Positions 26,535 to 46,115 of a DNA stretch of 64,000 nt are shown here, piece after piece. Position numbers and translations under genes: made by a program. The notes under the pieces are model-generated. The model was not told the origin of the DNA, did no database searches, and worked only from the letters and a program-made list of their open reading frames with translations. How positions within the stretch are numbered: position 1 is the stretch's first letter; each line of letters begins with the position of its first letter. The stretch is taken from assembly GCA_023415915.1 (NCBI GenBank), contig JAEZIZ010000096.1, forward strand, positions 217 through 64,216, written 5' to 3'. The stretch comes from Bacillota bacterium (GTDB lineage: Bacteria; Bacillota; Clostridia; Christensenellales; SZUA-584).

Positions 26535-26613
26535 ACTATGCATCCTTTCATTAAATTAGTGAAATGATATCGAATAATGTTGATTTATTTAAATAATTCA
26601 TCATCCAATGTAT

Positions 26614-27164: not shown

Positions 27165-27261
27165 CCAGATAGGATGAAAAGGAGCCATTGTCAGCGTTCC
27201 AAATAAACAGTTACCCTTTAAGATGTTGAAGTCTAAAGGGGGTAACAGAAAGGTGCTGAAA

Positions 27262-28755: not shown

Positions 28756-29491
28756 CACCATTGAAGCTGGAATGCGAAAGCTGAAGCTTGGAGGATTGGC
28801 CAGAGACTGGCGCAGCGTGCCTTTTGAAAATACTGAACAGTACGTTGCCGCGCTGCTCGATCTGGAATTGAAAGAGCGCGAAGTCAACCGAATTAACCGC
28901 ATGGTGCGCATTGCCGGGTTCAACGTGATGAAAACGCTGGACGATTTCGTCTGGTCGAAAGTGATTGAGCTTCCCAACGGCCTGACTCGCGAATACATGG
29001 AAGAGCTATGCTTTATCCCAAAAAAGGAAAACCTGATCTTCCTCGGTTCTGTCGGCACCGGCAAGACCCACTTGGCGACGGCGATTGCGCTCAAAGCTTG
29101 CGAGCAGGGTAAGCAGACACGTTTTTTCACAGCAGCTTCGCTGGCTAATATCCTCTTGGAGAAGAACCAGAAAGGCACGCTCAATGCTTACCTGGGTTCT
29201 CTGAAAAACGTGGAACTCATGGTGATTGACGAGATTGGTTTTGTCCCTCTGCACAAGGACGCCGCTGAATTACTGTTTCAGGTAATTTCAGACTGCTATG
29301 AGCGCAAAAGTCTGATCATTACCTCCAACCTGGAGTTCTCTGGCTGGAACACGGTATTCGGGGAAAACCGCCTGACCGCTGCCTTGATTGACCGGCTGAT
29401 CCACCATTCTCACATTGTGATCTTCACCGGCGAGAGCTACCGCCTGACACAATCCATGCAGCGCCAGCAGGCAAGGAAAGAAATGAGGTGA
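28748..29491 (+). CDS. istB: IS21-family helper ATPase IstB
   Basis: AAA+/DnaC-like Walker A GSVGTGKTHLA and Walker B MVIDEIG. GGGAGG SD. Overlaps the istA stop. Confidence 0.9.
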   Translation: MFDTIEAGMRKLKLGGLARDWRSVPFENTEQYVAALLDLELKEREVNRINRMVRIAGFNVMKTLDDFVWSKVIELPNGLTREYMEELCFIPKKENLIFLGSVGTGKTHLATAIALKACEQGKQTRFFTAASLANILLEKNQKGTLNAYLGSLKNVELMVIDEIGFVPLHKDAAELLFQVISDCYERKSLIITSNLEFSGWNTVFGENRLTAALIDRLIHHSHIVIFTGESYRLTQSMQRQQARKEMR

Positions 29492-29889: not shown

Positions 29890-31005
29890 TTATCCGATTC
29901 TTTTTTCCGTCGCTTTATCAAAGATATGTATCAACTCGCGTTGAAATTTTAGCTGTAATGGGGTCTTCATAGGTATTCCCGTCCTGAATCTCTGCGGCAA
30001 GTCGACTGTATCAACGCGCACGACGGTGTCCCTTCCCTGAACGTCAACATGCAGATATATCTCGCTGCCCATAAGCTCAGAAATCATGACCGAACATGGT
30101 ATCAGATCGTCGTCGCCCTGCTCACAGACAGATATGTGCTCGGGTCTAATACCCAGTATCACATCTTTTTCGGCTTCTTCGTCTTTTAATGTTCGTTGTA
30201 AGCCTTCGCTGAGCTCGATTTTTGTGCAATCAAGTGATGCATAATATTTTCCTTTTATTTTTTCCAGTCTTGCATCAAAGAAGTTCATTTGAGGCGTTCC
30301 GATAAAGCCTGCTACAAACATGTTTGCAGGCGTATTAAACACTTCCTGAGGGGTACCAATCTGCTGTATGAGTCCGTCTTTCATAATGACTATCCTGTCG
30401 CCCAAAGTCATCGCTTCTATCTGATCATGAGTTACATAAATAAACGTGGTATTTAGCTTTTTGCGCAACAGTATTAATTCAGCACGCATCTGATTTCTCA
30501 GTTTTGCGTCAAGGTTAGATAGAGGCTCGTCCATTAAAAATACTTTCGGTTCGCGTACAATGGCACGGCCTATGGCTACTCTTTGCCTCTGTCCGCCCGA
30601 AAGAGCTTTTGGTCTCCTTTTTAACAAATCAGTAATTCCCAGTATCTCCGCTGCTTCCTTAACCTTCTTATCTATTACTGCTTTATTGACATGACGCAGC
30701 TTTAATGAGAAAGCCATATTTTCATATACAGTCATATGAGGATATAGCGCATAATTCTGAAATACCATTGCAATATCCCTGTCTTTAGGCGCGATATCGT
30801 TAACAAGCTTGTCATCTATATATATTTCACCTTCGGTAATCTCTTCAAGTCCGGCAATCATACGAAGAGTAGTGGACTTCCCACAGCCTGAAGGGCCAAC
30901 CAACACAATAAATTCCTTGTCTTCGATTTCAAGGTTAAAATCCTGTACTACCGGGGAGTTCTTCGTGTATTCCTTCTTCAAGTTTCTTAATGAAAGTTTC
31001 GCCAT
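29890..31005 (-). CDS. Carbohydrate ABC transporter ATP-binding protein (MsmK/MsmX/UgpC/MalK type)
   Basis: GPSGCGKST Walker A, LSGGQRQR signature, C-terminal TOBE-like regulatory domain. Confidence 0.9.
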   Translation of the reverse strand: MAKLSLRNLKKEYTKNSPVVQDFNLEIEDKEFIVLVGPSGCGKSTTLRMIAGLEEITEGEIYIDDKLVNDIAPKDRDIAMVFQNYALYPHMTVYENMAFSLKLRHVNKAVIDKKVKEAAEILGITDLLKRRPKALSGGQRQRVAIGRAIVREPKVFLMDEPLSNLDAKLRNQMRAELILLRKKLNTTFIYVTHDQIEAMTLGDRIVIMKDGLIQQIGTPQEVFNTPANMFVAGFIGTPQMNFFDARLEKIKGKYYASLDCTKIELSEGLQRTLKDEEAEKDVILGIRPEHISVCEQGDDDLIPCSVMISELMGSEIYLHVDVQGRDTVVRVDTVDLPQRFRTGIPMKTPLQLKFQRELIHIFDKATEKRIG

Positions 31006-31251: not shown

Positions 31252-32133
31252 TTAATATTCTTTTTTTCTTGCCGACTCTATTTCATCGCTCCAGTCAAGA
31301 TGTTTATATTCCGCCGCTTCGGGCGCGTCCTTTATCCAATCGATAAAATCGTTCATGATGTCAAGGCTCCATATATCTGTGTCTATCTGAGCCGTTGTGT
31401 ATGTCTTATCTGCAAGCCTTTTAAATCCGAATATGTCCCTTAGGTGGGATTTCTCTGCCCTGACGACAACTGGCTCCACAAGGTGAGAAGGTATAAAGAT
31501 AACTCCGGAAATAGTTCCCAGCACGACGTCACCCGGCATGCATATGGCGTTGCCGATACGGCACGGCACATTCATACCCACCATTGTAGAATCTTCAATC
31601 GGCGTGGGGTCAATCCCTCTGTAATACACTTGGTATCCGTCGATTTTGACTATCTGTTCAAGATCTCTAATACCGCCCCATATCACGGCGCCTCCGTTTT
31701 TCGTGCGCGATTTTATCGCAGTTGAAAGGTTTCCTCCTACATATGTACCCTGGAAAATCTTATCAAACATATCAACTACGACTACGTCGTTTTCCACAAG
31801 GCTATCTACTACCCATTGGTTAAAATCACCGACGCGGCCTTCGTGTGTATGCCCATATTTCATCAAATAATCATGAAGATCAGGCCTTTTGGGCACCATT
31901 ACGGCTGTTACTGCACGCCCTACAAGCTGTACTCCCGGGTGCGACATCTTAAACCCGCCCTCATACTGAAACTTATACCCTCTCAGCCATAGCGCATGCC
32001 ACGCTTCTTCCAGCGTAATTTTCCGCACTCGGCGTAAAAGATCGTCGCTGACCTTTGGCCTTCCGTTTTCAAACCTTTCCCCTTTCCATTCCTGTGTCAG
32101 CTGTATAATGTCTTCTTTGCAATCAAACTTCAT
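31252..32133 (-). CDS. RraA-family protein (putative class II pyruvate aldolase / oxaloacetate decarboxylase-like), long form
   Basis: GRAVTA...GGNLSTAIKSRTKNGGAVIWGGIRD matches the RraA/HMG-aldolase core. At 293 aa it has N- and C-terminal extensions. Confidence 0.6.
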   Translation of the reverse strand: MKFDCKEDIIQLTQEWKGERFENGRPKVSDDLLRRVRKITLEEAWHALWLRGYKFQYEGGFKMSHPGVQLVGRAVTAVMVPKRPDLHDYLMKYGHTHEGRVGDFNQWVVDSLVENDVVVVDMFDKIFQGTYVGGNLSTAIKSRTKNGGAVIWGGIRDLEQIVKIDGYQVYYRGIDPTPIEDSTMVGMNVPCRIGNAICMPGDVVLGTISGVIFIPSHLVEPVVVRAEKSHLRDIFGFKRLADKTYTTAQIDTDIWSLDIMNDFIDWIKDAPEAAEYKHLDWSDEIESARKKEY

Positions 32134-32182: not shown

Positions 32183-33403
32183 TTACAGTACTCCCGGGGA
32201 AGTCCAATAAGCTGCGGGCGCTTCTTCCCATAGAGGCATGCTCAAACCGCCCGGATCGAACACTATCTTTCCATTCCTCAGCGTCATCACGCATTCAAGC
32301 TTTTTATCTCCGTTAAGTCTTGCATTACCGCAGTCTGCGTAGCTGAAACTGCCTTCAAGCAGTTTTAACACAGCGATGTCCGCGCAGCTTCCCACTGACA
32401 GATTGCCAAGTTCAGGATGGCCGAAAATCTTTGCAGGGAACACGGTAGTCCTCGCTATGACTTCATTAAGCGGCATCCCGATGCAAAGATACTTTGACAT
32501 TATATTAAGTACATTAAGCGCTGCACCGTGTATGTTCTCCATGTAAAGATCGCTTGAAAGCGTATCAGGCCCGAATCCGTCCCTGTACGCAGGAACCGCG
32601 TTTCTGAACCAGAAGCTCCCCGCTCCATGGCCGAGATCAAAGAGCACGCCCCGTTCTCTCGCTTCAAGTATAAAATCGTTGACGCGCATTTCCTTATTCA
32701 GCACCGGAAACTGCTGGGCGTACATGTGCGTGTGTATGTCCCCTTTGCGAAGCCTTTTCAACAAATCCCGATACGTACGCTGCTCCTTATATGGATAAAA
32801 GTCCACCATAAGAGGTTTTCCGCACATTTCGGCGGCTTCCAGCGATGCTTCTACGGAAGCCCACGGAGGATGTTCGGCATCGAACGGGCGCATCGTCCAA
32901 TAATGCGCGGTCTTTACGGCTACCACAATATCCGAATATGCTTTTGCAATCTCGGCTACGACGCCTTTGTTGAATTCACTAGGCTTTTGTTCGGACGCCA
33001 TCTGCACCATACCGCCCGCCGCTATATTCAGCATGGCGAGTACTCTGGCTTCCGATTGGTCGATGACCTGTTCTTTGAAGTGGAAGAAGTCGCGCCATCC
33101 GCATGTGCCTGCGTCGATAGCGGTTACAACGCCCGCCTGCAGCATGTGCGCGTCCGCGTTGATGTTGTAGAGCTTGTCCTTCTGTTGAGGGAAGCTCGGA
33201 TATATATGGCAGTGACAGTCGATAAGTCCAGGTGTGACTATATACCCGGAGAGATTTACCGTCTTGTCGGCCAAGTCCGCGATATCCTTTTCAACCTTTT
33301 CAACTTTTCCGCCGGAGATCGCGATATCGTATATCCCATCGAGTCCGTTTGCCGGATCGATAAGCCTCCCTCCCTTTAGAAGGAGCTCGTATTTTTGTTT
33401 CAT
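32183..33403 (-). CDS. Amidohydrolase-superfamily metallohydrolase (deacetylase/dihydroorotase-like)
   Basis: Start at MKQKYELLLKGG (GGGAGAG SD). PGLIDCHCH HxH metal motif, later H and D ligands. Confidence 0.75.
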   Translation of the reverse strand: MKQKYELLLKGGRLIDPANGLDGIYDIAISGGKVEKVEKDIADLADKTVNLSGYIVTPGLIDCHCHIYPSFPQQKDKLYNINADAHMLQAGVVTAIDAGTCGWRDFFHFKEQVIDQSEARVLAMLNIAAGGMVQMASEQKPSEFNKGVVAEIAKAYSDIVVAVKTAHYWTMRPFDAEHPPWASVEASLEAAEMCGKPLMVDFYPYKEQRTYRDLLKRLRKGDIHTHMYAQQFPVLNKEMRVNDFILEARERGVLFDLGHGAGSFWFRNAVPAYRDGFGPDTLSSDLYMENIHGAALNVLNIMSKYLCIGMPLNEVIARTTVFPAKIFGHPELGNLSVGSCADIAVLKLLEGSFSYADCGNARLNGDKKLECVMTLRNGKIVFDPGGLSMPLWEEAPAAYWTSPGVL

Positions 33404-33450
33404 TTCTCTCTCCCTTTTAATCGTACAAATGAATAATAATGCTTTTACTG

Positions 33451-34455
33451 TTATACAATATGTCCAGCAGCCACCGCGCACGAGGCGTTTGCTAAAGCGG
33501 CGCTGCTGCAGGCAACGAGCGAATTTTTAGTTATCCGAAGGCTCGTCACGTTGCCGCTCTTCTGGTTGCAGCAGATTAAATAGTCCTCTTTCTCGCTCAG
33601 CGTTATCCATCTGGGCCAACTACCGCCGCATCCAGACTCGAATAATACATGCGGTTCCGCCGTGTTTACGTCTATCGCGGCTATAGTATCCGCGCCCCTG
33701 TTCGCCACATAAAGCACTCCGCTGCTTGAAAGGCATGCCGCGCCGGGATAATTTGTAATGCCGCGCTCGGTCGTACGCAATTCCGATATGACATTTGGCG
33801 TGCCCGAGATATCAAGTATGCTTACCGTGCTGTTAAGCTCGCCTATAATATAGGCTGACTTTCTGCTTTCAGACAGTATTACCTGCCTCGGGCCGCTTCC
33901 GGCCTCAATAGCGGTACTGCCGAGCAGTTCGCCGTCCGCCGCCCTTCGCCACAGCAGCATATCGAGTCCTAAATCCGCAACGCAAAGCGTTTTTTCAGCT
34001 CCCTGTAAAGCCTCGCGTCTTTCAGGAAAGCCGGTATAAACTTCCGCGCTCCAATGCGCATGGGGCTGGGCCTGACTGTCGGAAGCGTTGCGATGCATCC
34101 ACAGCACTTTTGTAAGCGCAGCGTCTGCCGCAAACACATCACCGCTTCCGTAGCAGCACCCAACGACTGTTTCACGACTGGCAAGCAGGTGGCAAAGTCC
34201 CGAACATCCGTCGATGCTGATTTGGCTGTCTATATAAAGCCGTCCGCCATCTCCCTTGATAAACAACACTGACGCGCCCGAGTCATATTCCTGCGCGGCA
34301 TATACTCCGTCCTCGCCCGGGCAGAGAAACGAAGGGTTCCTGCCAATACGCAGCCCGGTTTTTATCTCAAGGCTTCCGTAATTATCCATGCTTAGCAGAA
34401 GCAGGTCGTTGCCTTTGTCGGCGCTGTAGCCGCTTGCCAGCCAATAGCCGCACAT
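33451..34455 (-). CDS. 7-bladed beta-propeller lactonase (6-phosphogluconolactonase/YbhE-like)
   Basis: ADLGLD, GSGPRQ, YVANRGADTIAAIDV and PRWITL blocks match the lactonase propeller family pattern. Confidence 0.7.
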   Translation of the reverse strand: MCGYWLASGYSADKGNDLLLLSMDNYGSLEIKTGLRIGRNPSFLCPGEDGVYAAQEYDSGASVLFIKGDGGRLYIDSQISIDGCSGLCHLLASRETVVGCCYGSGDVFAADAALTKVLWMHRNASDSQAQPHAHWSAEVYTGFPERREALQGAEKTLCVADLGLDMLLWRRAADGELLGSTAIEAGSGPRQVILSESRKSAYIIGELNSTVSILDISGTPNVISELRTTERGITNYPGAACLSSSGVLYVANRGADTIAAIDVNTAEPHVLFESGCGGSWPRWITLSEKEDYLICCNQKSGNVTSLRITKNSLVACSSAALANASCAVAAGHIV

Positions 34456-34458: not shown

Positions 34459-34926
34459 TTACTCCGCCTCGACTATTACCTCTACCTCGACAGGTATATT
34501 GTTGTTAGGCATGTTATGCGTTCCCATAACCGTACACGCATGATATCCGCGCTCTTCAAGCGCCTCTGCAATGGTATCGGAAAATCCGTCCATGACGCCG
34601 TCCACATCGCAGAATCCTTCCGCACAGTTAACAAGCGCAAACACTTTTACAAACTTCTTTACCTTGTCAAGCGTACCTAAAATGTCTTTTAATGCGCCGA
34701 GTATAATTATCGCGCATTCTCTTGCAGCCGCGTAGCCTTCCTCAAAGGTAAGATCTTTGCCTATACGCCCTTTATAGATAGGTTCTCCGGTAATGGCGTC
34801 CTCCGGACCGTGTCCCGATACATATATCAGGCCATCCACACGGCGGAAGAGCACTATACCCCTCTTTTTCTTGTAAACAGGCTCTGTTTCCTTTCCATCT
34901 ACAATTACTTTATTTATGCTGTCCAT
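34459..34926 (-). CDS. RidA/YjgF/Rid-family protein (paralog 1)
   Basis: 155 aa. YVSGHGP...GKIG...ARECAIIILG...VDGFSD...HACTVMG pattern typical of the Rid family. Confidence 0.75.
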   Translation of the reverse strand: MDSINKVIVDGKETEPVYKKKRGIVLFRRVDGLIYVSGHGPEDAITGEPIYKGRIGKDLTFEEGYAAARECAIIILGALKDILGTLDKVKKFVKVFALVNCAEGFCDVDGVMDGFSDTIAEALEERGYHACTVMGTHNMPNNNIPVEVEVIVEAE

Positions 34927-34942
34927 CAGGCTATCCCTCCGC

Positions 34943-35410
34943 TTACTTTCTAATGCGGATTATCGCGTCGACGACAACCGGCACGTTCATAGGAAGCGCA
35001 AACGCTCCCATAGCCGAGCGCGCATGCTGTCCGCGCCTTCCAAACACCTCTACCATCAGATCGGAAAAACCGTTTATTACAGCCGGCTGAGATGAGAAAT
35101 CTCCCGCACTGTTTACCAGGCCAAGCACCTTAACAAAATAATCCACTCTGTCCAGCTCGCCTATGTAGTCCTTTATGGTCGCCAGCATGTTGATCCCGCA
35201 AAGCCTCGCAGCCTGATAAGCTTCTTCCTGGCTTACGGTATCGCCAACTTTACCTACATAAACAGGCTTTCCCTCGGCATCGACCGGCAAATGTGCCGAA
35301 ACGTACAGCATATCACCATGAATCACAGCATCTACGACTCCACTTCCCCTACGGTCCTTTGAAGGAAGCTTTATGCCCAACTGTTCCAATCGTTTTCCTG
35401 TTTCGCTCAT
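34943..35410 (-). CDS. RidA/YjgF/Rid-family protein (paralog 2)
   Basis: 155 aa. Colinear with paralog 1 (YVSAHLP...GKVG...ARLCGINMLA...INGFSD...HARSAMG). Confidence 0.75.
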   Translation of the reverse strand: MSETGKRLEQLGIKLPSKDRRGSGVVDAVIHGDMLYVSAHLPVDAEGKPVYVGKVGDTVSQEEAYQAARLCGINMLATIKDYIGELDRVDYFVKVLGLVNSAGDFSSQPAVINGFSDLMVEVFGRRGQHARSAMGAFALPMNVPVVVDAIIRIRK

Positions 35411-35430
35411 TTTTTAACTCCTTTCGTTTT

Positions 35431-36666
35431 TTATAATTCTGTACACATCTTAAACAGGTCGTACAGCAATATCACACAGCGTGGTACATGATAAGGCCCT
35501 TTGCCCTCAAACCCCTTGTTATCCAGGAGCATCCTGTTGTCGTGTGAAAGTATGCTGAACCATTCCCCGTTTTCGTGATCCCTGAAGTGCTTATCGACGT
35601 AATCGTGAAGCTTCTTAAAGTAGGTAAAATGCCTCTCGTTACCGTTAAGCAAAGCGCTCAGCGCCAAAGCGTTAAGGCCTTCCGCCTGCGTCCACCAGAC
35701 CTTGTCATGCCAATCTGCTATTGTCCCGGCATAATTTTGAGTACGCTGGGCATCTTTCGGAACTCGGTTCTCCACATCAAGCAGAAGTATGAATCCGCCG
35801 TTCTCCTCGTCGTAGCCGCGATCTATTATCCAGTCCAGAACTTCGCCTGCCCTCTTTATTATATTTTTATCGTTGAGTTCCATACCGGCACGCAGCGAGA
35901 ACCAGCACGACTCAAGAGCGTGACCGGGGTCCATTATCCTTCCCTGGTCGCGGAGCAGAGGCTTGCCGTCGGCGCCTACGTTCTCAAACACTGCTTTATA
36001 TTCATCGTTTGCGAATACATACATTGCGTTATGAAGCCTATATTTCAGCTCATCCGCATAGCGCTCGCCAAATAAGCGCATTCCCTCAATCGAAGCGAGC
36101 AGCGTCATAAAGTTGACCGCGTGGTTGCGAAAAGCCGAAGGCAGCCCTTCCTTTTCCAGCAGCGCCGTGTCTCTGGCGTTCTTAAATACCGTATCCGTAA
36201 GCTCGGCTGCAAACTTTAGCTGTTCGTCGGTGCGCTCATCGCCAAGCGCGACAAGGTACTCGTAATAACCCTTTATCGCGAAAACATCGTTGAAAAGGTT
36301 TGTTCCCGAATCGATGACGGAACCGTCACGTGCCATGGTGCCGTTAAAGCGTCCGTTACCCTTATAAGCGTACTTTTTCATCCACTCAACGCCCTCGGCA
36401 GCGATGCTCAGCCATTGGGGCCGTTTTTCAACGGTATTGTAGAGATACGAGAATGTGTAGATGTTGCGGCCTACGAACCATCCGGGCTTAACATCTTTAA
36501 ACACGTTTCCCTTTCTGTCGAAGCAGCTTAAATATCCCCCGTACTCGCGGTCTACAATCCTGGGCTCCCAGAACGGTACTATATCCTCGAGCAGTTCGCT
36601 CTTGTAATAATCGTACAAAGATTTCAGTTCTTCCTTGTGTGCAGTGATAAAATTTTTGTCAAACAT
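35431..36666 (-). CDS. AGE-family (N-acylglucosamine 2-epimerase-like) epimerase/isomerase
   Basis: 411 aa. Alpha/alpha-barrel pattern with repeated aromatic/His motifs (WEPR..D.EYGG; HALESCWF; WWTQAEG). Confidence 0.7.
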   Translation of the reverse strand: MFDKNFITAHKEELKSLYDYYKSELLEDIVPFWEPRIVDREYGGYLSCFDRKGNVFKDVKPGWFVGRNIYTFSYLYNTVEKRPQWLSIAAEGVEWMKKYAYKGNGRFNGTMARDGSVIDSGTNLFNDVFAIKGYYEYLVALGDERTDEQLKFAAELTDTVFKNARDTALLEKEGLPSAFRNHAVNFMTLLASIEGMRLFGERYADELKYRLHNAMYVFANDEYKAVFENVGADGKPLLRDQGRIMDPGHALESCWFSLRAGMELNDKNIIKRAGEVLDWIIDRGYDEENGGFILLLDVENRVPKDAQRTQNYAGTIADWHDKVWWTQAEGLNALALSALLNGNERHFTYFKKLHDYVDKHFRDHENGEWFSILSHDNRMLLDNKGFEGKGPYHVPRCVILLYDLFKMCTEL

Positions 36667-37684
36667 TGCTGTCCTCTCCTTCGCTCATGAAGTATCTCGT
36701 CATCGTTTCATTTATCCTTTTTGATATCATATACAGCTCTTCGCTGTCCAACCCCTCGTTGCTGTGCTCTATAGCGTTTATCAGCGCACCTTGTACCGGT
36801 TCGCCGTCAAGAAGCTGTATGGCGGAATGCGGGCAAAACCTTTTTACCGACTCTTTATAGGAGTTCAGCAAATAGCCGCTGTCATCTGTTACGTAAATTG
36901 TGCCGGAGAGAACGATAGGTATCCGGGCGTTACATAGCCCTGCCTTTTCGATAAGCCCTCCGGTCATCCTTCCCTGCTCCCATCCCGCAGTCTCCAGTAT
37001 CCTTCGCGATACGGCGTCTCCCTCTTTTGCAAGCTCGACAACGAGTTTTGGTACTGAGAAGTCGTATTGTAACGTATAGCCGCTTTTTATTATGTCTTCC
37101 GCAAGTTGCTGCCATGAGCTGTACCCGCAATGACCGCACAGCCTGTCTTCCAGCATTGTTTTATCGCCCGTATGCTCATAGCTCCTGAACGCGTCGTTTA
37201 AAGCCATATCCGTTATCATCCTGCCCCCGCCGAAATTGCCGAGAGGGTATTTATACGCGTTTATGTATACCTTCCTATTCCCGGGAGCAAGCACGCCCGT
37301 ATTGTGCCCCGTGCCGCAAACGGATACCGCACCTACGTTCTCAACTGTTTTTGCCTTGTACGCTATCCATATATCGTTCTCTATCTCGTAAGGCAGCTCT
37401 TTTAGCAGCGTAGTATCAAACGCTTGTTTTAAAAGCCGTATGTCGCTCTCGTTGTCAGCTCCTGCAAGCCCCATATACACGTTGCTGATATCACCTGGCG
37501 AAACGCCGAGGTTATTAACCAATGTCTCTACAGCTTCCGCGATATACGCCCGCGTTTGTTCCAGCCCGCTGATATAAGGGTTCGTGCAGCCGGTCTTATA
37601 TACCTTAAGCACCTCTCCGTCTGCCGATGCGGCAGCACAAAGTGTCTTTGTTCCTCCGCCGTCTATTCCTATTACATATTTCAT
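36659..37684 (-). CDS. BadF/BadG/BcrA/BcrD-type ATPase, N-acetylglucosamine-kinase-like sugar kinase
   Basis: Start at MKYVIGIDGGGTKT (ASKHA phosphate-1 motif). ATGA overlap with the upstream gene. Confidence 0.75.
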   Translation of the reverse strand: MKYVIGIDGGGTKTLCAAASADGEVLKVYKTGCTNPYISGLEQTRAYIAEAVETLVNNLGVSPGDISNVYMGLAGADNESDIRLLKQAFDTTLLKELPYEIENDIWIAYKAKTVENVGAVSVCGTGHNTGVLAPGNRKVYINAYKYPLGNFGGGRMITDMALNDAFRSYEHTGDKTMLEDRLCGHCGYSSWQQLAEDIIKSGYTLQYDFSVPKLVVELAKEGDAVSRRILETAGWEQGRMTGGLIEKAGLCNARIPIVLSGTIYVTDDSGYLLNSYKESVKRFCPHSAIQLLDGEPVQGALINAIEHSNEGLDSEELYMISKRINETMTRYFMSEGEDSNV

Positions 37685-38799
37685 AGCTCTGCAGCAGCCC
37701 CCGTTATACATGATAGCAGCGCTTCTTTAACTGTCTGTACTTCGTTATCATGCAAGTTAAGAGGGCTTATGTAAACCGCATTCCCGCTTGCCTCGCACCC
37801 TATATATATACCTTTGCGCCTCATGTTTTCTTCCACGGAACGGGCGCTAACCGATTTATCAAGACAAACGAACAACCTCGGGTATGTCTGTCCGACGGGC
37901 CCTCTGTCAACAATTTTCGTCTCAACACCTATCTCGTCCAATGCCCGTTTTATTTCAAGGTTTATATTAATCAACCTTTGATTGTTACTGGCGTGATCGA
38001 GCCCTATATATTCTTTTATGGCTATATAGAGCGCTGCCATTGCCTCGCGCGATACCTTCGATGACCGACATATGCCGTGCGCCGGGGCTCCGAACTTTAT
38101 GCAGTCTGCTATAAGCTCTTTACGCCCTACAATGAGCCCGCTGTCCTGCGGCCCGCAAAGCGTCTTGCCGCCGCTGAATATTGCAAGGTCCGCTCCCATC
38201 CCGGTAATATTCCATAGGTTTTCAACAGGCGGCAGTTGCGCTGCGGCGTCTACGACAACGGGTACGCCTCTTTCATGCGCTATGCGTATGACGTCTTCCA
38301 GCGGCATCGCTGCACGGTCGTACTGTATGTTCATGAAGTAAAATACCGCCGCAGTGTTTTCGTTTATTGCGCCTTTGAGTTCGACTTCAAGCGTCTCATC
38401 CGCGTCCCCTATCATTATTACCTTTGCACCTGCCGCAGATATCGCCTTGTCGTATGCGTTGTGCTGGCAATTCAGTATTATCACTTCGTCTTTGCCGTTT
38501 GTTTCGGGCAGGCGCATAAACCTGTATTCGTCCCCCCTCGAAAGGCAAACCGCCGTCGCAAGCAGCAGTCCGCCCGACGCGCCGTTTGTTATGTAAGCGG
38601 CTTCGTTATGCGTAAGCTCCGCTATTTTCTTCCCGATTACGCTCTGCAGCTCGCCTATGTCAACGAACACCTTTGATATCTCTGCCATGCTTTTCAGGGC
38701 GTTTTCCGACATCCTACTGCCGCCGTAGATCGTGTAGGTATCGTGAGCGTTTATATATGTCCTGATCCCCAGCTCCTCACATATGTTCAAATCCATCAC
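37681..38799 (-). CDS. SelA-like PLP-dependent enzyme, DgaE-type (D-glucosaminate-6-phosphate ammonia-lyase family)
   Basis: 372 aa. GIRTYINAHDTYTIYGGS N-terminus and FSGGKTLCGPQDSG (PLP-lysine block analogous to SelA GGPQ). Confidence 0.65.
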   Translation of the reverse strand: MMDLNICEELGIRTYINAHDTYTIYGGSRMSENALKSMAEISKVFVDIGELQSVIGKKIAELTHNEAAYITNGASGGLLLATAVCLSRGDEYRFMRLPETNGKDEVIILNCQHNAYDKAISAAGAKVIMIGDADETLEVELKGAINENTAAVFYFMNIQYDRAAMPLEDVIRIAHERGVPVVVDAAAQLPPVENLWNITGMGADLAIFSGGKTLCGPQDSGLIVGRKELIADCIKFGAPAHGICRSSKVSREAMAALYIAIKEYIGLDHASNNQRLININLEIKRALDEIGVETKIVDRGPVGQTYPRLFVCLDKSVSARSVEENMRRKGIYIGCEASGNAVYISPLNLHDNEVQTVKEALLSCITGAAAEL

Positions 38800-38801: not shown

Positions 38802-40106
38802 CTATTGTAAGTATATATAATCCTTATGCAGCTGCGCCGCTTTCATCAATATGCTTTTAGCGTTATTAAATCCATGAATCAGAGGGTGATTGAGCAATGC
38901 CCAAAGAGCTTTCTCCCTGCTGTGCTCTATGGCCGCCTCTACCGTGAGCCGTTCATATTGCTTTATCATTTTAACAATCCCTGAGATTGAATCGGGCAGC
39001 TTCCCAAAAGGCAAAGGTTTTATACCACTCTTACTGACAATGCAGTTCGTCTCAACAACGTCGTCATCTTCAAGCCCGTATACCGCGCCGTTATTGCTTG
39101 TATTGACTACCAGCTCGACACCGTCTTCTCCTGTAAGCGCCTCCATGATATTCAGAGCCGCAAAGCTGTACAAAGAGCCTCCCCGGTTTGACAGTTCAGG
39201 CGGCGGAGCAGTTAACGATTCATCCGAATATTTTTCAAACAAAGTATTATTGACCTGTGAAACGAGTACGGATCTTGTCACCTTGTTCTTTTCCCATTCG
39301 TCAATCTGCTTTTTTAACATCTCGTTTTCAAAGTAGTAATATTGCAAATAGGGAGAAGGTATGATACCTAGCTTTTTCGTCAGTTCTCCGACGCCGGGCA
39401 CCTTAGGGATATTCTTCATAATCGTCTCGTTTCCACCTATCTTGTCAAGCACCTCAGGCAGCACGTCCTCACCGTTATACTCTGCTGCGGTAACAAAACT
39501 TAAGTGATTGAGGCCCACGAAGCGGCAGTGCACGAGATCGCTCTGAACTCCCAGTATCTTTGCTATATCGCTCTGCATGTTTACAGGCACATTACATAGC
39601 CCTACGCATTTCGCGCTGCTGTTCTTTAATATTGCCTCCGTAACTATTCCCGAAGGATTCGCAAAATTCACGAGCCATGCGTCCGGGCAAACCTGCTCGA
39701 TATCCCTCGCTATCTGTACGGCAATGGGTATCGTGCGCAGTGCGTTTACAAATCCTCCTGCTCCGGTAGTCTCCTGCCCGATAATGCCGAGATCTATGCC
39801 CAGTTTCTCGTCCGCTTCCCGCGCGGCCATTCGTCCTGCTCTCAGTTGGTTGATAACAAAGTCTGCTCCTTTGAGCGCCTCTTTGCGGTCCAGCGTAAGT
39901 GAAAGCTTGCACTCGATATTTTGCGCCCCGAACATGCGGCGCCCAAACGCTTCGATAATCTTTGCTTCCTTTTTTCCTTCTTCGATATCGACGAGAGCTA
40001 TCTCGCGGATGGGCAGCCTATGCCAGCGTTTTATTATTTCATTGAATATTTCAGGCGTGTAAACGCTTCCAGCACCGATAATAACAAGCTTGTATCCGTT
40101 CTTCAT
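38802..40106 (-). CDS. GH4 family NAD+/Mn2+-dependent 6-phospho-beta-glucosidase (CelF/ChbF-like)
   Basis: KLVIIGAGSVYTPE, GQETTGAGG, NFANPSG, CNVP motifs colinear with E. coli ChbF as recalled. Confidence 0.85.
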   Translation of the reverse strand: MKNGYKLVIIGAGSVYTPEIFNEIIKRWHRLPIREIALVDIEEGKKEAKIIEAFGRRMFGAQNIECKLSLTLDRKEALKGADFVINQLRAGRMAAREADEKLGIDLGIIGQETTGAGGFVNALRTIPIAVQIARDIEQVCPDAWLVNFANPSGIVTEAILKNSSAKCVGLCNVPVNMQSDIAKILGVQSDLVHCRFVGLNHLSFVTAAEYNGEDVLPEVLDKIGGNETIMKNIPKVPGVGELTKKLGIIPSPYLQYYYFENEMLKKQIDEWEKNKVTRSVLVSQVNNTLFEKYSDESLTAPPPELSNRGGSLYSFAALNIMEALTGEDGVELVVNTSNNGAVYGLEDDDVVETNCIVSKSGIKPLPFGKLPDSISGIVKMIKQYERLTVEAAIEHSREKALWALLNHPLIHGFNNAKSILMKAAQLHKDYIYLQ

Positions 40107-40121: not shown

Positions 40122-40937
40122 TTATGGATGTGCTTTAATACTTGCTCCGCCGTCAACAAATATCGTCTGGCCGGTTATATAATTTGACATATCGCTTGCC
40201 AGATACAGCGCGGCGTTAGCTATATCGTCTACCGAGCCGGGCGGCAGAGGTTGCATACCGTCAAGCAGCTTTAAAAAGGCGTTCCGTTGTTCCCCTTCGG
40301 GGAACGTGTTTATCTCGTCCTGTACTGTATCGCTCAATATCAGCCCTGGGCATATGTTGTTTACGCGTATTCCGGTCCTGGCATAATCGAGCGCCATAGC
40401 CCGGGCTGACGCATTCATCGCTCCCTTGGTTGCCGAATATAATGCATAGCCCGGCATCGTCATCTCGCTGTGAATCGAAGAAATATTGATTATGCTGCCG
40501 GCCCCTCTTTCAATCATTCCGGGGATAAACTTGCGGCAGCAGCGCATCACGCTTTTAAAATTCGTCTCAAGCAACTGCTCTATTGTGGCGTCGTCGTATT
40601 CATGGGCAGGCATCCTTTTATTCACACCCACGGTATTTACGAGTATGTCGACGCCTCCAAAATCTTTAATGATATCGTCGCAGACCTTTTCAGTCTGGCT
40701 GCCCTGCGACAAATCGAAAACATATCCTTTCGCCTTATCTGATATTTGTTTTATTTGCTCCATTGTTGAAACAAGCGCGGGCTCGTTTCTTGACCCTACT
40801 ATTATTACTGCGCCCTGCTGCGCAAAAAGCAATGCAATAGCTTTGCCGATGCCCCGCGCTCCAGTCGTTATAAACGCGCGCTTTCCTTCGAGCATCCGGT
40901 TGTAGTCTTTAATTAAAGGTATGTTATTATCAGACAT
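40122..40937 (-). CDS. SDR-family oxidoreductase
   Basis: TTGARGIG, S...YSATK catalytic motif. Confidence 0.85.
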   Translation of the reverse strand: MSDNNIPLIKDYNRMLEGKRAFITTGARGIGKAIALLFAQQGAVIIVGSRNEPALVSTMEQIKQISDKAKGYVFDLSQGSQTEKVCDDIIKDFGGVDILVNTVGVNKRMPAHEYDDATIEQLLETNFKSVMRCCRKFIPGMIERGAGSIINISSIHSEMTMPGYALYSATKGAMNASARAMALDYARTGIRVNNICPGLILSDTVQDEINTFPEGEQRNAFLKLLDGMQPLPPGSVDDIANAALYLASDMSNYITGQTIFVDGGASIKAHP

Positions 40938-41961
40938 TTGGGCTACTTACACTCACTTTCTCGACCAACGTCGTCTTGTATATCTTTTTAATATAGTTAT
41001 CGCTTTTACCGCTCACATGATCGGCCAATATTCTAATACTGTCCACGCCAATATCAAACAGCGGCTGTTCCATCGATGTTATCCCCGGCCCTTGATATTT
41101 ATCCGGAAGTATCTTCTGATTATCAAACCCCATTACTGAAACGTCCTGTGGCACACGTAGTCCCATGTCCAAAGCGGCCCTTATCGCAAAACTCGCAATA
41201 GCGTCATCTGAGCAAAATACTGCTGAAGGCCGATGTCCGGATTGCATCAGCCTCTTCATGCATTCATATCCGCTATGATAATCAGCCATAGTATATTGTA
41301 TATATCCATCCAGCACTTCAAGCCCCGATGAGCGCATTGTTTCCATAAAACCGTTAAAGCGGTCAATAGTAACTTTTTTATTTGGATTACCGCCTATATG
41401 CGCGATTGTACTGTGACCTTTCCCGATGAGATACTCTGTTGCTTTGCGCGCTCCTTCTATGTTATCTATCAATAACTTGTGGCAATTGTTGTTAGGCAGA
41501 TCGTTCTCAACAATAAGGTATTTTACCGGGCAATCTTCCCCCATATAGTGCGCCAGCATATCGTCGCTCATATACGATCCGTACAGCACAACAGCATCTA
41601 CTACCCCTTTGTTGAGGTACTTTATATACTTTTCCTTTACTACTGCGTCTCCGCCCATAATACTGCAGAATATAACATTGTATTTTGTCTGCAGCGCACC
41701 AGTTTCAAATCCTCTGATCAAGTCATAAAAGAACGGATCATGTAGGTTGTTTATTATAACGCCTATAGTTTCTGTCTTTTTCTTTACAAGTGCGCGTGCG
41801 GCATGGTTAGGCAAATAACCAAGATCATCGATGGCTTTAAGAACCTGATCCCTCCGAGCAGGCTTAACGTTGTTGCAGTTGTTTATTACCCGCGATACCG
41901 TCGCCAGCGATACTCCCGCTTTTTCCGCAACATCTTTAATTGTTACAATTCTCTTTTCCAC
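40930..41961 (-). CDS. LacI-family transcriptional regulator
   Basis: N-terminal HTH TIKDVAEKAGVSLATVSRVIN plus a PBP-type sugar-binding domain. Confidence 0.9.
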   Translation of the reverse strand: MEKRIVTIKDVAEKAGVSLATVSRVINNCNNVKPARRDQVLKAIDDLGYLPNHAARALVKKKTETIGVIINNLHDPFFYDLIRGFETGALQTKYNVIFCSIMGGDAVVKEKYIKYLNKGVVDAVVLYGSYMSDDMLAHYMGEDCPVKYLIVENDLPNNNCHKLLIDNIEGARKATEYLIGKGHSTIAHIGGNPNKKVTIDRFNGFMETMRSSGLEVLDGYIQYTMADYHSGYECMKRLMQSGHRPSAVFCSDDAIASFAIRAALDMGLRVPQDVSVMGFDNQKILPDKYQGPGITSMEQPLFDIGVDSIRILADHVSGKSDNYIKKIYKTTLVEKVSVSSPNV

Positions 41962-41997: not shown

Positions 41998-43140
41998 TCA
42001 AAACACATAGCGCGCGTCTTTATCTTCACATACCAATCGCATGAGCATTTTTTCGTCGACTTCCACTCCGAGGCCGTTTCCTTCAGGAAGTACATAGCTT
42101 CCATCAGAAATCTTAACCCTCTCGCATAAAACATCTTCTCTATGGGCATGATACGTTGAATCCATCGGGAGCTTTAGTGCATCCAGCGCGCATACACAGT
42201 GGACTATCGCCGCTGTTTTTATACCCATATCCCACGCGCAGTGGTGAGCAAGCGGAAGATTTGCCGCCTCCGCGATATGCGCGAGCTTTACAAGCTCGGA
42301 TATGCCGCCTATCGATTCCATATCAACTACTCCCACGTCCACCGCGTTGAGCTTAATCGCATTGAACAGGCCTCCAGGAATGTAGCAGTCTTCATTGATC
42401 GCAATAGGAACGGTACACCGCTCTCTCAGCGCCCGGTAATGGTCGAAGCAGTTAACCGGCATCGGCTGTTCTACATATTGCAGCCTGCATTCCGCAACTC
42501 CGCTAAGGTAAGATACAGCTTCTGCAAGGTTATAAGCCTGGTTCATATCTACCCTGAAATCAATATTATCCCCGGCTAACTTTCTCATCTCTTTAGCACG
42601 TTTGATATCGTATGTGACGTCAAGGCCTCCCTTGGTTTTGACCGTTTTAAATCCTTCCTGTATTATCTGTTCTATCTTTGAAGCTGTTTGCTTTTCTTCC
42701 ATAATTCCCATCGCGTATGCGATAGGAGCAGCAGGCCGAACGCAGCCGCCCAGGAGTTTATAGATAGGCTTATTTGTTGCCTTTCCCATTATATCCCACA
42801 GCGCCATCTCTACGCCACTAAAAAAATGCAGCATATTAATATCAGGATTATAAAGCGAATCTATACTCCTTTTTATTACGTTTAGGTTAAACGGGTCCTG
42901 CCCTATAATAGCAGGCATCAATGCATCCTCTAATATTGTCTTTGTAAGCCGCAGGGAGAGAATCATATTCATCTCTCCCCAGCCAACGATACCTTCGTCG
43001 GTAGTAACCTTATAGATCGCGCTTGTGGCGGAGGAAGTTCCCACTGCGTCTTTACTACCCTTATAAGGAGCTATGCCCCCGTCTTCTATTGGCTTTACGG
43101 CTACCTTTACGGGATACATTTTTACGTCGGTTATTTTCAT
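41998..43140 (-). CDS. Enolase-superfamily enzyme (mandelate racemase-subgroup-like, putative acid-sugar dehydratase)
   Basis: KTVKTKGG (KxK), metal ligand candidates in DFRVDMNQ / YVEQP / INED, late HHCAWD His-Asp. Confidence 0.65.
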   Translation of the reverse strand: MKITDVKMYPVKVAVKPIEDGGIAPYKGSKDAVGTSSATSAIYKVTTDEGIVGWGEMNMILSLRLTKTILEDALMPAIIGQDPFNLNVIKRSIDSLYNPDINMLHFFSGVEMALWDIMGKATNKPIYKLLGGCVRPAAPIAYAMGIMEEKQTASKIEQIIQEGFKTVKTKGGLDVTYDIKRAKEMRKLAGDNIDFRVDMNQAYNLAEAVSYLSGVAECRLQYVEQPMPVNCFDHYRALRERCTVPIAINEDCYIPGGLFNAIKLNAVDVGVVDMESIGGISELVKLAHIAEAANLPLAHHCAWDMGIKTAAIVHCVCALDALKLPMDSTYHAHREDVLCERVKISDGSYVLPEGNGLGVEVDEKMLMRLVCEDKDARYVF

Positions 43141-43164
43141 GCTCTGCCCCGAAATACTATTAGA

Positions 43165-44271
43165 TTAAAGTGTAATCTCTCTTCCTTCCTTCGCGGAAAC
43201 GAGAAGTGCTTCCACTATCCTTACCTGCTCAATGCCTCCTTCAAGAGACGTTAATGGCGACAATTCCGGCTCGGGATTTTCAAAACTGTCCGCATAAACG
43301 CATACACCTTCATTCCAGTCAAATGCGTTGCCCTTGTCGGCTTCACGCATCACTAACGCGTACGCTCCCGACTCACCGCACTTTTCAACAACGGAGGTGT
43401 AACCGTATTTGGCAAGAAGCGCCTGCGCTTCTTTTGCTTTCTCTTCGCCTTCGTCAATAACAAAGCTTAAGCCCTGCTCGCATTGGAAACCGCCCGTCTT
43501 GTTGAATATGAAGCCGCCTTTCGTAGCTGTGAACTGCAGGTAGTTTTCGCAAAGCCTGTCGATACGTTTTGTCCATTCGGTTTTCAGGCGGGCAGTAAAT
43601 CCTCCCTCAAACGTAAGAAAGCAATCCATGTAGTCTACATCAGAACCTATTACGCTCTTCTTACCTACCGCATATACCTTTTCCACCTTACGGCCGAACA
43701 TGAAAAGCAGCAGGTCGACGGCATGGCTGAACAGGAAATATGCGGGAGAAGATATCGCGGCGTAATTCTTGCTGTCTTTTCCCCATAGTTTCAATGGAAC
43801 ATCTATAGAGTCATCTATCCTGAATTCTCCGTATTCCGGTTTTCCGATAAACCCTTTCTCTATCAGCAGGCGTATCGAGTGGTCAATTGGGTAAAGGCGG
43901 TTCGGGAACAAAACCTTTATAACCGTACCCGATTTCTCGGCGGCTGCTTTAATTTCCATAGCGTCACTTAAATTTGTTGTCAACGGCTTCTCACTTATCA
44001 CATAAGGTATCTTATGTGCGCAGGCCGCTAGCAGCGGCTCCTTGTGGTACGGGTCCTGGGTCGCGACTACAAGTATATCTATTGCCTCGTTATTGAACAT
44101 CTGTTCATAATCGCTGTAACAGTTGGCTCCGTTGGCATCTGCCCAGGCTTTCGCCTTATCAGGCTTTATGTCGCAAACTGCAACGACCTTTGTTGTAGAA
44201 TGCTTGTTAAGACGCTCTGCATGCTGGCTTCCAAGCAAACCCATTCCGATTACTGCACATCTCTTTTTCAT
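43165..44271 (-). CDS. Gfo/Idh/MocA-family oxidoreductase
   Basis: CAVIGMGLLG Rossmann N-terminus, SEKP motif. Confidence 0.85.
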   Translation of the reverse strand: MKKRCAVIGMGLLGSQHAERLNKHSTTKVVAVCDIKPDKAKAWADANGANCYSDYEQMFNNEAIDILVVATQDPYHKEPLLAACAHKIPYVISEKPLTTNLSDAMEIKAAAEKSGTVIKVLFPNRLYPIDHSIRLLIEKGFIGKPEYGEFRIDDSIDVPLKLWGKDSKNYAAISSPAYFLFSHAVDLLLFMFGRKVEKVYAVGKKSVIGSDVDYMDCFLTFEGGFTARLKTEWTKRIDRLCENYLQFTATKGGFIFNKTGGFQCEQGLSFVIDEGEEKAKEAQALLAKYGYTSVVEKCGESGAYALVMREADKGNAFDWNEGVCVYADSFENPEPELSPLTSLEGGIEQVRIVEALLVSAKEGREITL

Positions 44272-44281
44272 AGTTGTTTTC

Positions 44282-46029: not shown

Positions 46030-46061
46030 ATCGGTTCCTTCTTACATAGTTTATTTAGTAT

Positions 46062-46091
46062 TACCCGCCCCTTTTACAAAAGGGGCGGGTA
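46062..46091 (-). promoter_or_regulatory. GC-rich intra-operon stem-loop between the SBP and permease genes
   Basis: CCCGCCCCTTTT / AAAAGGGGCGGG inverted repeat with no following U-run on the coding strand. Possibly an mRNA stabiliser or partial terminator that raises SBP stoichiometry. Confidence 0.45.
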
Positions 46092-46115
46092 TTGACATTA
46101 CAGACTATTTCAGAC

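Follow-up and report, generated by a model that had tools for sequence, protein, structure and literature searches.

Gene content and conservation of the operon

The window, a stretch of 64,000 nucleotides from a Christensenellales genome of the lineage SZUA-584 (contig JAEZIZ010000096.1, positions 217 to 64,216), carries an operon in which the gene for an enzyme that depends on pyridoxal 5'-phosphate (PLP) and is related to the ammonia-lyase DgaE is followed by two genes of the Rid family. Five open reading frames (ORFs) of interest run on the minus strand from 38799 to 34459. They encode the DgaE-like (SelA-fold) PLP enzyme (37681–38799; 372 amino acids, containing AIFSGGKTLCGPQ; Pfam SelA and Aminotran_5), a BadF/BcrAD-type (NagK-like) kinase (36659–37711; BcrAD_BadFG 58 bits, NagK_SO3507 71 bits), an N-acylglucosamine 2-epimerase-like protein (AGE; 35431–36666; GlcNAc_2-epim 144 bits, NF052547 251 bits against a cut-off of 600) and two Rid proteins of 155 amino acids each, here named RidR for the upstream gene (34943–35410; PF14588 59.9 bits, cut-off 35) and RidC for the downstream one (34459–34926; PF14588 46.0 bits, same cut-off). 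Coordinates, strands and Pfam assignments confirm the genes named in the original prediction.

The surrounding unit is an ATP-binding cassette (ABC) transporter operon of roughly 19 kb, also on the minus strand. It begins with a first oxidoreductase of the GFO/IDH/MocA family (GFO1; 47510–48490), followed by a solute-binding protein (46116–47450), two permeases (45142–46029 and 44282–45145), a second GFO/IDH/MocA oxidoreductase (GFO2; 43165–44271) and an enolase-superfamily aldonate-dehydratase-like protein (41998–43140), all assigned by Pfam and NCBIfam. Then come a LacI-family regulator (40930–41961; LacI and Peripla_BP_3), a short-chain dehydrogenase/reductase (SDR; 40122–40937; adh_short_C2 198 bits, NF005559 199 bits against a cut-off of 215) and a 6-phospho-beta-glucosidase-like hydrolase of glycoside hydrolase (GH) family 4 (38802–40106; Glyco_hydro_4 and Glyco_hydro_4C), which precedes the PLP gene. 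Downstream of the kinase, AGE, RidR and RidC genes lie a 7-bladed beta-propeller lactonase (33451–34455; Pfam Lactonase 116 bits), a probable cog3964/PRK09237-type amidohydrolase (32183–33481; NF006689 360.5 bits, just under the cut-off of 371; EF_0837 model TIGR03583 196 bits, cut-off 432), an RraA-like protein (31252–32133; Pfam RraA-like 57 bits) and an MsmK/UgpC-type ABC ATPase (29890–31005; ABC_tran, OB_MalK and TOBE_2; NF008653 486 bits). Intergenic distances from GFO1 to the RraA-like gene range from -31 to +86 nt, consistent with a single operon. A gap of 246 nt separates the RraA-like gene from the ATPase, which occupies the same position in the related loci L083 and L084 and completes an ABC transporter of solute-binding protein, two permeases and ATPase. 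The upstream block (41998–48490) is also found in L009, L011 and L083. A sigma-70-like promoter sequence, TTGACA-17-TATAAT, matching the consensus in 12 of 12 positions, lies upstream of the first gene (48557–48585), in a region where pattern matching finds promoter-like sites in numbers not above shuffled expectation. Among the 20 operon genes and 10 flanking genes scanned, no component of a phosphotransferase system (PTS) and no gene for a DgaF-type 2-keto-3-deoxygluconate-6-phosphate (KDGP) aldolase was found; the first of these results agrees with the earlier view that the locus has no PTS.

When 185,579 species-representative genomes were searched by a pattern scan, a related PLP enzyme (40–63% identity, 63% being the closest match) turned up in 80 loci, and the window proteins were used as queries against all ORFs of these loci. 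Both RidR and RidC are encoded in 33 of the 80, and a single Rid in 2 more. Where the PLP enzyme is at least 44% identical to that of the window (n = 34), the pair is present in 28 loci; two of the six loci without it are truncated contigs and four represent a different cluster type. The same cluster was found in loci retrieved independently through RidC homologues, including the fully syntenic contig L083, with a PLP enzyme 80% identical, and a very common Lachnospiraceae version. Since both sets contain the PLP gene in company with the Rid pair, the arrangement is no chance juxtaposition. For just one RidC homologue, the index of the assembly collection lists 1416 blocks, and the cluster is present in cultivable species including Blautia producta (DSM 2950, L012) and Mediterraneibacter (M. 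glycyrrhizinilyticus, L025). The Rid linkage, from which the original prediction had argued that the PLP enzyme performs an elimination, is therefore evolutionarily conserved, and it favours a deaminating beta-elimination that releases an enamine or imine. Gene content and order, family assignments, residue states, conservation and co-occurrence are reported here as observed.

The recurrent core comprises SDR, PLP enzyme, RidR, RidC, lactonase (variable), amidohydrolase and RraA-like protein, with the LacI gene and an AGE-plus-ABC module often inserted. The SDR gene stands directly upstream of the PLP gene, or of GH4 and the PLP gene, in 31 of the 33 Rid-pair loci; the LacI gene is directly upstream of the SDR gene in 19 loci; the lactonase occurs in 24, usually directly after RidC; and the RraA-like gene is the last of the core in 19. 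Of the 33 Rid-pair loci, 24 encode the cog3964 amidohydrolase. In 6 others, the gene between RidR and RidC codes for a 527-amino-acid protein similar to D-aminoacylases (E=6e-64) and to PpOngB, a GlcNAc1A deacetylase (E=3e-53). A deacylase thus accompanies the Rid pair in every locus that is not truncated (30 in all), and the exchange resembles a non-orthologous displacement, the enzyme displaced being a deacetylase that would act on an N-acetyl alpha-amino acid-like sugar acid. The SDR, lactonase, amidohydrolase and RraA-like genes, together with an adjacent eda and kdgK-like pair, had not been considered in the original prediction, and they are the partners that define the pathway.

No other protein of the cluster is as well conserved as RidR and RidC. 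Median identities to the window across the 33 loci are 76% for RidR and 71% for RidC, as compared with 60% for SDR, 55% for the PLP enzyme, 54% for the amidohydrolase, 53% for the RraA-like protein and 31% for the lactonase. The pair appears to be ancient. In L029, a cluster otherwise collinear with that of L027 carries RidR, RidC and amidohydrolase genes inserted just before the PLP gene, indicating that these three genes move as one module.

Several loci depart from this arrangement. In a locus of the spirochaete Breznakiella and in three Bacillota loci the PLP gene lies among SDR, enolase-superfamily, UxuA-like, glyoxalase-like, GH1 and GFO genes, with neither Rid nor amidohydrolase (L027, 3767–12096; compare L029, 719–11101). 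Two loci from Bacillota metagenome-assembled genomes (L036, 9074–17811, and L045, 3378–12147) contain two PLP modules in tandem, the first with a single RidR-type gene, an OngB-like deacylase and three SDR genes, and the second with both RidR and RidC; a single-Rid version of the system therefore exists. In loci of Chloroflexota, Chthonomonadales, Poribacteria and others (L038–L048, L056–L057, L064, L067, L069, L071 and L079), the PLP gene directly follows a cog3964 amidohydrolase gene, and Rid, SDR and lactonase genes are missing from the neighbourhood; the association of deacylase and lyase thus appears to be the older one. The typical Clostridia-type cluster also occurs, with 58–77% identity to the window proteins, on a contig that bears the label Bacteroides thetaiotaomicron (L007); the label is probably a binning or labelling error, or else the cluster was transferred.

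A tandem pair of Rid1 proteins

The two Rid proteins share 45% identity over 110 residues. Both score above the cut-off of PF14588 and near or below that of PF01042. Against the RidA model TIGR00004, RidR reaches 20.7 bits (cut-off 106.25) and RidC gives no match. Their only matches in the PDB are 3d01, PA0814, 2otm and ACIAD3089, and at E<=0.01 neither matches a RidA-subfamily structure there; RidR is closest to 3d01 (E=8e-27) and PA0814 (E=4e-24), and RidC to PA0814 (E=7e-16). Judged by these closest relatives and by PF14588, RidR and RidC appear to belong to subfamily Rid1, the CDD group YjgF_YER057c_UK114_like_1 (PMC4433059), and not to RidA, as had been supposed. PA0814 of Pseudomonas aeruginosa and ACIAD3089 of Acinetobacter baylyi, which have been assigned to Rid1, are imine deaminases in vitro and rescue a ridA mutant of Salmonella; proteins of this subfamily deaminate a broad range of imines in vitro (PMC5619798). 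The window proteins share PF14588 and, as a lineage, the H-A-R motif with them. Unlike the window Rids, which form a conserved tandem pair in a catabolic operon, PA0814 and ACIAD3089 are encoded by single genes and have no known physiological substrate.

The catalytic arginine equivalent to RidA Arg105 is conserved in both lineages. RidR retains it as Arg131 in the sequence HARSAMG, and it is present in 38 of 38 RidR orthologues; in the RidC lineage it is found in 33 of 34 locus orthologues and in 119 of 120 database homologues. The equivalent of Glu120 is kept in RidC (34 of 34) and never in RidR, where V, C or T takes its place in all 38 sequences. In the S-G-Q-[IL]-P motif, the Gln is replaced by His in 31 of 38 RidR and 31 of 34 RidC sequences, and both proteins appear to lack an equivalent of Tyr17. 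The Gln-to-His change and the loss of Glu120 in RidR further distinguish the window Rids from PA0814 and ACIAD3089. The Escherichia coli RidA sequence served as an alignment guide, and the Arg column was fixed independently by HMMER alignments to PA0814 and 3d01.

The retention of this arginine, which bears on whether the Rid proteins could act as proposed, thus holds for both lineages and fails for RidC of the window itself, which has Cys131 at this position (HACTVMG). The codon is TGT (34534–34536, minus strand), a single transition from CGT, and the sister-strain protein P0242 is identical to the window RidC except that it has Arg131. The substitution therefore appears to be private and of strain level. 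The exact Cys131-bearing sequence is recorded on 8 contigs, and so it is probably a real variant. It could represent a recent loss of function or, should the pair act as a heteromer, a tolerated change, or else a variant that arose in assembly or sequencing and recurs in the databases.

The original prediction had proposed that two Rid copies might serve two distinct imine substrates. Such independent deaminases, or generic damage control, would accord with the divergence of the paralogues and their difference at the Glu120 position, with the broad imine range of Rid1 proteins in vitro (PMC5619798) and with the presence in the operon of several oxidoreductases that could in principle make a second imine. 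However, the pair is inherited as a unit, with 33 loci encoding both proteins and 2 a single one; the genes are typically 3–30 nt apart; the conserved core contains only one candidate imine-forming enzyme; and compact seven-gene clusters still encode both Rids. In a mirror-tree comparison, a weak test whose result is suggestive only, the RidR and RidC distance matrices correlate with r=0.88, above the correlations of either Rid with the PLP enzyme or SDR, and the correlation remains 0.64 when the PLP enzyme is controlled for, as against 0.30–0.37 for Rid with SDR. Two independent substrates, or a generic protective role, are hence unlikely, and the proposal finds no support in the related loci. 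An obligate, co-evolving partnership of RidR and RidC, possibly a hetero-oligomer, fits the sequences better. Complementary decay of the active sites, which could be a sign of a heteromer, is partial, with Glu120 lost in RidR only and Arg kept in both lineages; that the two proteins physically form a complex is something we infer.

The DgaE-like PLP enzyme

The best PDB matches of the PLP enzyme are the uncharacterised 8t7j (E=2e-35) and Salmonella DgaE 7lc0 (E=8e-35), while SelA is matched at E=1e-9. As a single sequence it scores 124–126 bits against 7lc0 and 8t7j (124 for 7lc0) and 41 bits against SelA; a profile of 23 homologues gives 192 bits for 7lc0 and 177 bits for the other solved relative, as compared with 60 bits for SelA. 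The enzyme is thus nearer to DgaE than to SelA and does not group with SelA or aminotransferases, as expected from the original prediction. In contrast, it falls well short of the NCBIfam DgaE family model TIGR01437 (168.6 bits, cut-off 385.3) and of the DgaE equivalog model NF047797 (157.8 bits, cut-off 600), as it does of the SelA model TIGR00474 (50.9 bits, cut-off 267.9). The name given by PGAP to its homologues is only 'aminotransferase class V-fold PLP-dependent enzyme'.

K212 of the FSGGK motif aligns with the PLP lysine K213 of DgaE 7lc0, and this lysine is present in the window enzyme and in 79 of 79 locus homologues. In a docking model of DgaE, Arg226 was placed at the alpha-carboxylate and Arg301, Arg332 and Arg346 at the phosphate of the substrate (PMC9529869). 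At the Arg226 position the window enzyme has R, and the subfamily has R or K in most cases (S or T in 7 of 82); the window enzyme also retains the Arg301 equivalent, as do most of its homologues (73 of 82). Arg332 is replaced by Gly (G or A across the subfamily) and Arg346 by Leu (L, Q, M or D), so that two of the three phosphate-binding arginines, all of which are present in DgaE and 8t7j, are lost, according to an alignment of the C-terminal domain that is of lower to moderate confidence.

The His162/His163 dyad is strictly conserved in DgaE, where His163 is the stereospecific donor of a proton to C3 of the aminoacrylate intermediate; an H163A variant is fully active and releases free enamine absorbing at 293 nm, and it was argued that His163 exists to prevent this release (PMC9529869). 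In the window enzyme the sequence FMNIQYDR is aligned opposite DgaE VKSHHCVQ, and the dyad is missing, as it is from all 79 homologues in the 80 related loci. In 8t7j, as in DgaE, the dyad is present, along with the PLP lysine and Arg226. Whether a homologue of the subfamily has Rid neighbours makes no difference to the loss of the dyad, which all 79 share; a correlation of the two within the subfamily was therefore rejected, and it is only from true DgaE that the subfamily as a whole differs in this respect. Given the scores below both NCBIfam cut-offs and the lack of the dyad and of two phosphate arginines, the enzyme is a homologue and not an orthologue of DgaE, and only the wider part of the earlier assignment stands. 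The replacement of Arg332 and Arg346 makes a non-phosphorylated substrate likely. The simplest reading is a sister subfamily to DgaE that would catalyze the same elimination on a non-phosphorylated aminoaldonate with no on-enzyme protonation of the enamine, and the protein is predicted to be a 2-amino-2-deoxy-aldonate (D-glucosaminate-type) ammonia-lyase.

Another possibility is that the PLP enzyme is an aminotransferase or epimerase acting with the GFO/IDH/MocA oxidoreductases or the SDR on keto- or amino-sugars, with the Rids only guarding against stray enamines. In L021, L023, L026 and L027 the PLP gene indeed adjoins GFO genes, and neither amidohydrolase nor Rid is encoded; GFO1 resembles UDP-GlcNAc 3-dehydrogenase, which is paired with aminotransferases in biosynthesis; and Rid genes are known to cluster with aminotransferase genes as well (PMC4433059). 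This reading is quite unlikely, since the nearest characterised relative is an ammonia-lyase, the carboxylate position Arg226 stays basic (R/K), the link to a deacylase of alpha-acylated carboxylates, including its OngB-like replacement, points to an alpha-amino acid as substrate, and the eda and kdgK-like neighbours fit 2-keto-3-deoxygluconate (KDG) as product.

The opposite extreme, a true DgaE acting on D-glucosaminate-6-phosphate with a soluble kinase providing the phosphate that the PTS supplies in Salmonella, is very unlikely. DgaE is among the closest characterised relatives of the enzyme, and at its 3' end the PLP gene overlaps that of the BadF-type kinase; on the other side stand the scores far under both DgaE cut-offs, the missing dyad and phosphate arginines, the lack of a DgaF-type KDGP aldolase, which is present in both true-DgaE loci examined, and the distribution of the kinase. 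The latter is encoded in only 4 of the 33 Rid-pair loci and absent from 29, and it occurs only together with GH4 (the window, L003, L004, L009, L022 and L028). It was rejected as a supplier of the 6-phosphate on this ground, and it appears to be accessory, working with GH4 rather than with the PLP enzyme. The GH4 protein matches the 6-phospho-beta-glucosidases 1s6y and 5c3m (E=1e-112), which explains the kinase without glucosaminate-6-phosphate.

A second sugar kinase is encoded upstream of the operon promoter match, in a unit on the minus strand (48666–50797) where a gene of the prokaryotic ketohexokinase family (Khk; PF25270, 122 bits) overlaps one whose double-SIS product is similar to NagB-II and to the isomerase domain of GlmS. 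From its content, the unit may serve a ketosamine or an amino-sugar phosphate. Both Khk and the double-SIS protein were rejected as members of the system, because they have a counterpart in 0 of 80 loci and lie beyond the promoter match. The earlier idea that soluble kinases substitute for the PTS is therefore not borne out for either kinase.

For comparison, metagenome contigs were scanned with the DgaE sequence, which gave 80 true-DgaE control loci of 47–99% identity. At least 76 of 79 of these retain the His-His dyad, and a Rid1-type gene was found in none of the 80; four contain a weak RidA-like ORF on the opposite strand. The anticipated co-occurrence of DgaE-like and Rid genes thus holds for the window subfamily (33 of 80) and not for true DgaE. 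In the Salmonella-type control L085, EIIA-man, IIB, IIC and IID of a mannose-family PTS are followed by DgaE and KDGP aldolase. The EF_0837-type control L161 encodes a cog3964 amidohydrolase, DUF4311, DUF4310, a DgaE-like protein and KDGP aldolase, with no PTS. Set against the window-type loci, the controls reveal two packages: one with PTS, phosphate arginines, His163 and KDGP aldolase and no Rid, and an ABC-type package in which those residues are lost and the Rid1 pair, dehydrogenase and lactonase are present.

Proposed pathway and related systems

With moderate confidence, the operon is interpreted as a conserved system of gut and rumen Clostridia for the catabolism of an N-acetyl amino sugar via a sugar acid without phosphorylation; the identity of the specific sugar is considerably less certain than the overall scheme. 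For all substrates, for the order of the steps and for the release of an enamine we infer the following. A glycoside would be imported by the ABC system and then split, in the window by the BadF kinase and the GH4 6-phospho-beta-glycosidase. GH4 is a predicted accessory enzyme that would free monosaccharides from an imported and then phosphorylated beta-glycoside. This feeding hydrolase is variable: GH4 and the BadF kinase are found in the window and five loci, GH1 in L029, a GH89 alpha-N-acetylglucosaminidase directly upstream of the PLP gene in five compact clusters, and a GH2 beta-mannosidase-like enzyme in five loci. The GH89 neighbour links the cluster to GlcNAc, as the eda and kdgK-like neighbours link it to KDG. 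AGE, encoded in 17 loci and absent from the compact GH89-type clusters, is probably an accessory module and would interconvert N-acetylmannosamine and N-acetylglucosamine (GlcNAc).

The N-acetylhexosamine would then be oxidised at C1 by the SDR, a predicted sugar 1-dehydrogenase making a lactone, for which a role as KDG or gluconate 5-dehydrogenase is also possible. The lactonase, a predicted N-acetylhexosaminolactone hydrolase, would open the lactone to an N-acetylhexosaminate (GlcNAc1A-like). Removal of the acetyl group by the cog3964 amidohydrolase, a predicted N-acetyl-aminoaldonate deacetylase, would yield a 2-amino-2-deoxy-aldonate of the D-glucosaminate type. The best PDB matches of this amidohydrolase are 8je0, 2ics and 2ogj; its true start is probably the ATG at 33403, giving 406 amino acids, and the L083 orthologue is called at 408. 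The DgaE-like PLP enzyme would eliminate the 3-OH and, lacking His163 for protonation of C3, should release a substituted aminoacrylate (enamine) and not an imine. The released enamine/imine would be tautomerised and hydrolysed by RidR and RidC to KDG and NH3.

KDG could be cleaved by the RraA-like protein, predicted to be a class II 4-hydroxy-2-oxo-acid (KDG-type) aldolase, which is the least certain step, or phosphorylated by a KdgK-like kinase and then cleaved by Eda. Genes for the latter route are located on the plus strand beyond the Khk-SIS unit, opposite in orientation to the operon: eda, encoding 2-keto-3-deoxy-6-phosphogluconate aldolase (51002–51676; Pfam Aldolase 237 bits, TIGR01182 256 bits, cut-off 156), and a PfkB gene similar to kinases of KDG or 2-keto-3-deoxygalactonate (KDGal) (51696–52739; PfkB 95 bits). 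In a model of an aldolase/kinase fusion, the PfkB protein reaches 478 bits over the kinase half, and against the KDG/KDGal kinase model it scores 201 bits; both values are below cut-off. Besides the window, L004 and L013 also have this pair next to the cluster, and it is the probable sink for the pathway product.

Several points weigh against this scheme. In 45 of the 80 loci the PLP enzyme, a member of the same subfamily and likewise without His163, has no Rid gene within 10 kb, so that a dedicated Rid is not obligatory. The window RidC has Cys131 despite an otherwise intact operon, and the loss of Arg332 and Arg346 is read from the less secure part of the alignment. The SDR is as similar to gluconate 5-dehydrogenase (E=1e-40) as to glucose 1-dehydrogenase (E=7e-38). 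The RraA-like protein has only weak NCBIfam and PDB matches to 4-hydroxy-4-methyl-2-oxoglutarate/4-carboxy-4-hydroxy-2-oxoadipate aldolase/oxaloacetate decarboxylase (e.g., 3noj, E=1e-6), and it looks redundant with KdgK/Eda. It is not obvious why strict anaerobes, which normally rely on NagA/NagB, should have an oxidative route for GlcNAc, and the substrates named above are guesses. A role of RidR and RidC other than imine hydrolysis, such as an isomerase- or lyase-type step or regulation, is highly improbable: the Gln-to-His change in S-G-Q-[IL]-P (31 of 38 and 31 of 34), the apparent loss of the Tyr17 equivalent, the conservation of the Rids above that of the catalytic enzymes and the likewise unexplained role of OngD would allow it, but both lineages retain the Arg that is diagnostic of deaminase activity in the literature, and the Rid1 proteins PA0814 and ACIAD3089 are active deaminases complementing a ridA mutant (PMC5619798).

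The proposed oxidative pathway is related by descent to the Dga system of Salmonella and by design to the Ong system of Pseudoalteromonas. With Dga it shares the fold and family of the PLP enzyme, including the PLP lysine, the Arg226 position and Arg301, and, by prediction, the beta-elimination of the 3-OH from a 2-amino-aldonate to a 2-keto-3-deoxy acid. Unlike Dga, it has no mannose-family PTS, DgaF aldolase, His162/His163, Arg332 or Arg346, its lyase scores below the family cut-offs, and SDR, lactonase, amidohydrolase, two Rid1 proteins and the RraA-like protein are added.

In the ong cluster, OngB takes the acetyl group off GlcNAc1A, glucosaminate is turned into KDG and NH3 by the PLP enzyme OngC, and KdgK acts next; deletion of ongD, encoding the RidA-family protein OngD, whose role is unknown, abolishes growth on GlcNAc1A (PMC9537276). 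A deacetylase, a PLP deaminase, a Rid protein and a KDG kinase are likewise all encoded in or beside the window operon, and the predicted logic of non-phosphorylative deacetylation and deamination to KDG and NH3 is the same; six related loci even use an OngB-like deacetylase. However, OngC is of fold-type III, whereas the window PLP enzyme is of fold-type I (SelA/DgaE-like); Ong has one RidA-type protein of 127 amino acids in place of two Rid1 paralogues of 155; and its substrate is pre-oxidised by lytic polysaccharide monooxygenases, while the window cluster, in anaerobic Clostridia hosts, has its own dehydrogenase and lactonase. The likeness appears to be an analogy of design and not family membership, the PLP enzyme and the window deacetylase being non-orthologous to OngC and OngB.

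The EF_0837-type cluster of Enterococcus and others, like the Chloroflexota loci described above, pairs a cog3964 amidohydrolase with a DgaE-family PLP enzyme (L161). It differs from the window in keeping the His-His dyad, DUF4310/DUF4311 and KDGP aldolase and in having no Rid genes. This cluster, too, is not known to have an established function. What is new relative to Dga and Ong is the oxidation module of the cluster itself, a lyase without proton donor and phosphate site, and the conserved Rid1 pair. No description of such a cluster was found in the searchable literature, which omits most subscription journals.

Other features of the window lie outside the operon. An IS21-family element (27223–29491, plus strand), consisting of an IstA-like transposase (510 amino acids, Mu-transpos_C_2 domain) and an IstB ATPase (250 amino acids), is located directly downstream of the MsmK-type ATPase gene, the last of the operon. 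A second sugar-utilisation cluster on the minus strand (21681–26543), which may extend to about 16800, encodes a xylose-isomerase-like TIM-barrel protein, a GFO/IDH/MocA oxidoreductase, a Peripla_BP_4 protein and a double-domain ABC ATPase. On the other side of the operon, a 510-amino-acid ORF (53026–54558, minus strand) may be what remains of a truncated hsdR gene, as it matches a type I restriction R subunit in the domain-3 and C-terminal domains only, and a 729-amino-acid 7TM receptor with an intracellular HD hydrolase domain (59349–61538, minus strand; 7TMR-HDED, 7TM-7TMR_HD and HD) is unrelated to the operon.

A more specific version of the proposed pathway is offered as a tentative and rather doubtful extension. 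In it, RidR and RidC would form an obligate hetero-oligomeric Rid1 enzyme, a dedicated pathway enzyme and not housekeeping damage control, that performs the last chemical step of the lyase. This step, the handling of the enamine at C3 followed by imine hydrolysis, would be the one carried out on-enzyme by His163 in true DgaE. The route, from sugar through lactone, N-acetyl-aminoaldonate and aminoaldonate to KDG, would degrade an N-acetylhexosamine oxidatively and without phosphorylation; it would be an undescribed pathway with a wide distribution among the Lachnospiraceae, Oscillospiraceae and Christensenellales of the gut.

The locus places a Rid1 pair, locked into a catabolic operon, beside a single candidate imine-generating PLP enzyme that lacks the enamine-retaining residue. 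It offers a concrete route to a first physiological role for Rid1 proteins and a specific, testable case for such a role. The cluster is common in gut bacteria. It could also explain why OngD is essential in the analogous marine pathway. An unrecognised route to carbon and nitrogen from amino sugars and glycans would matter for models of mucin and glycan foraging.

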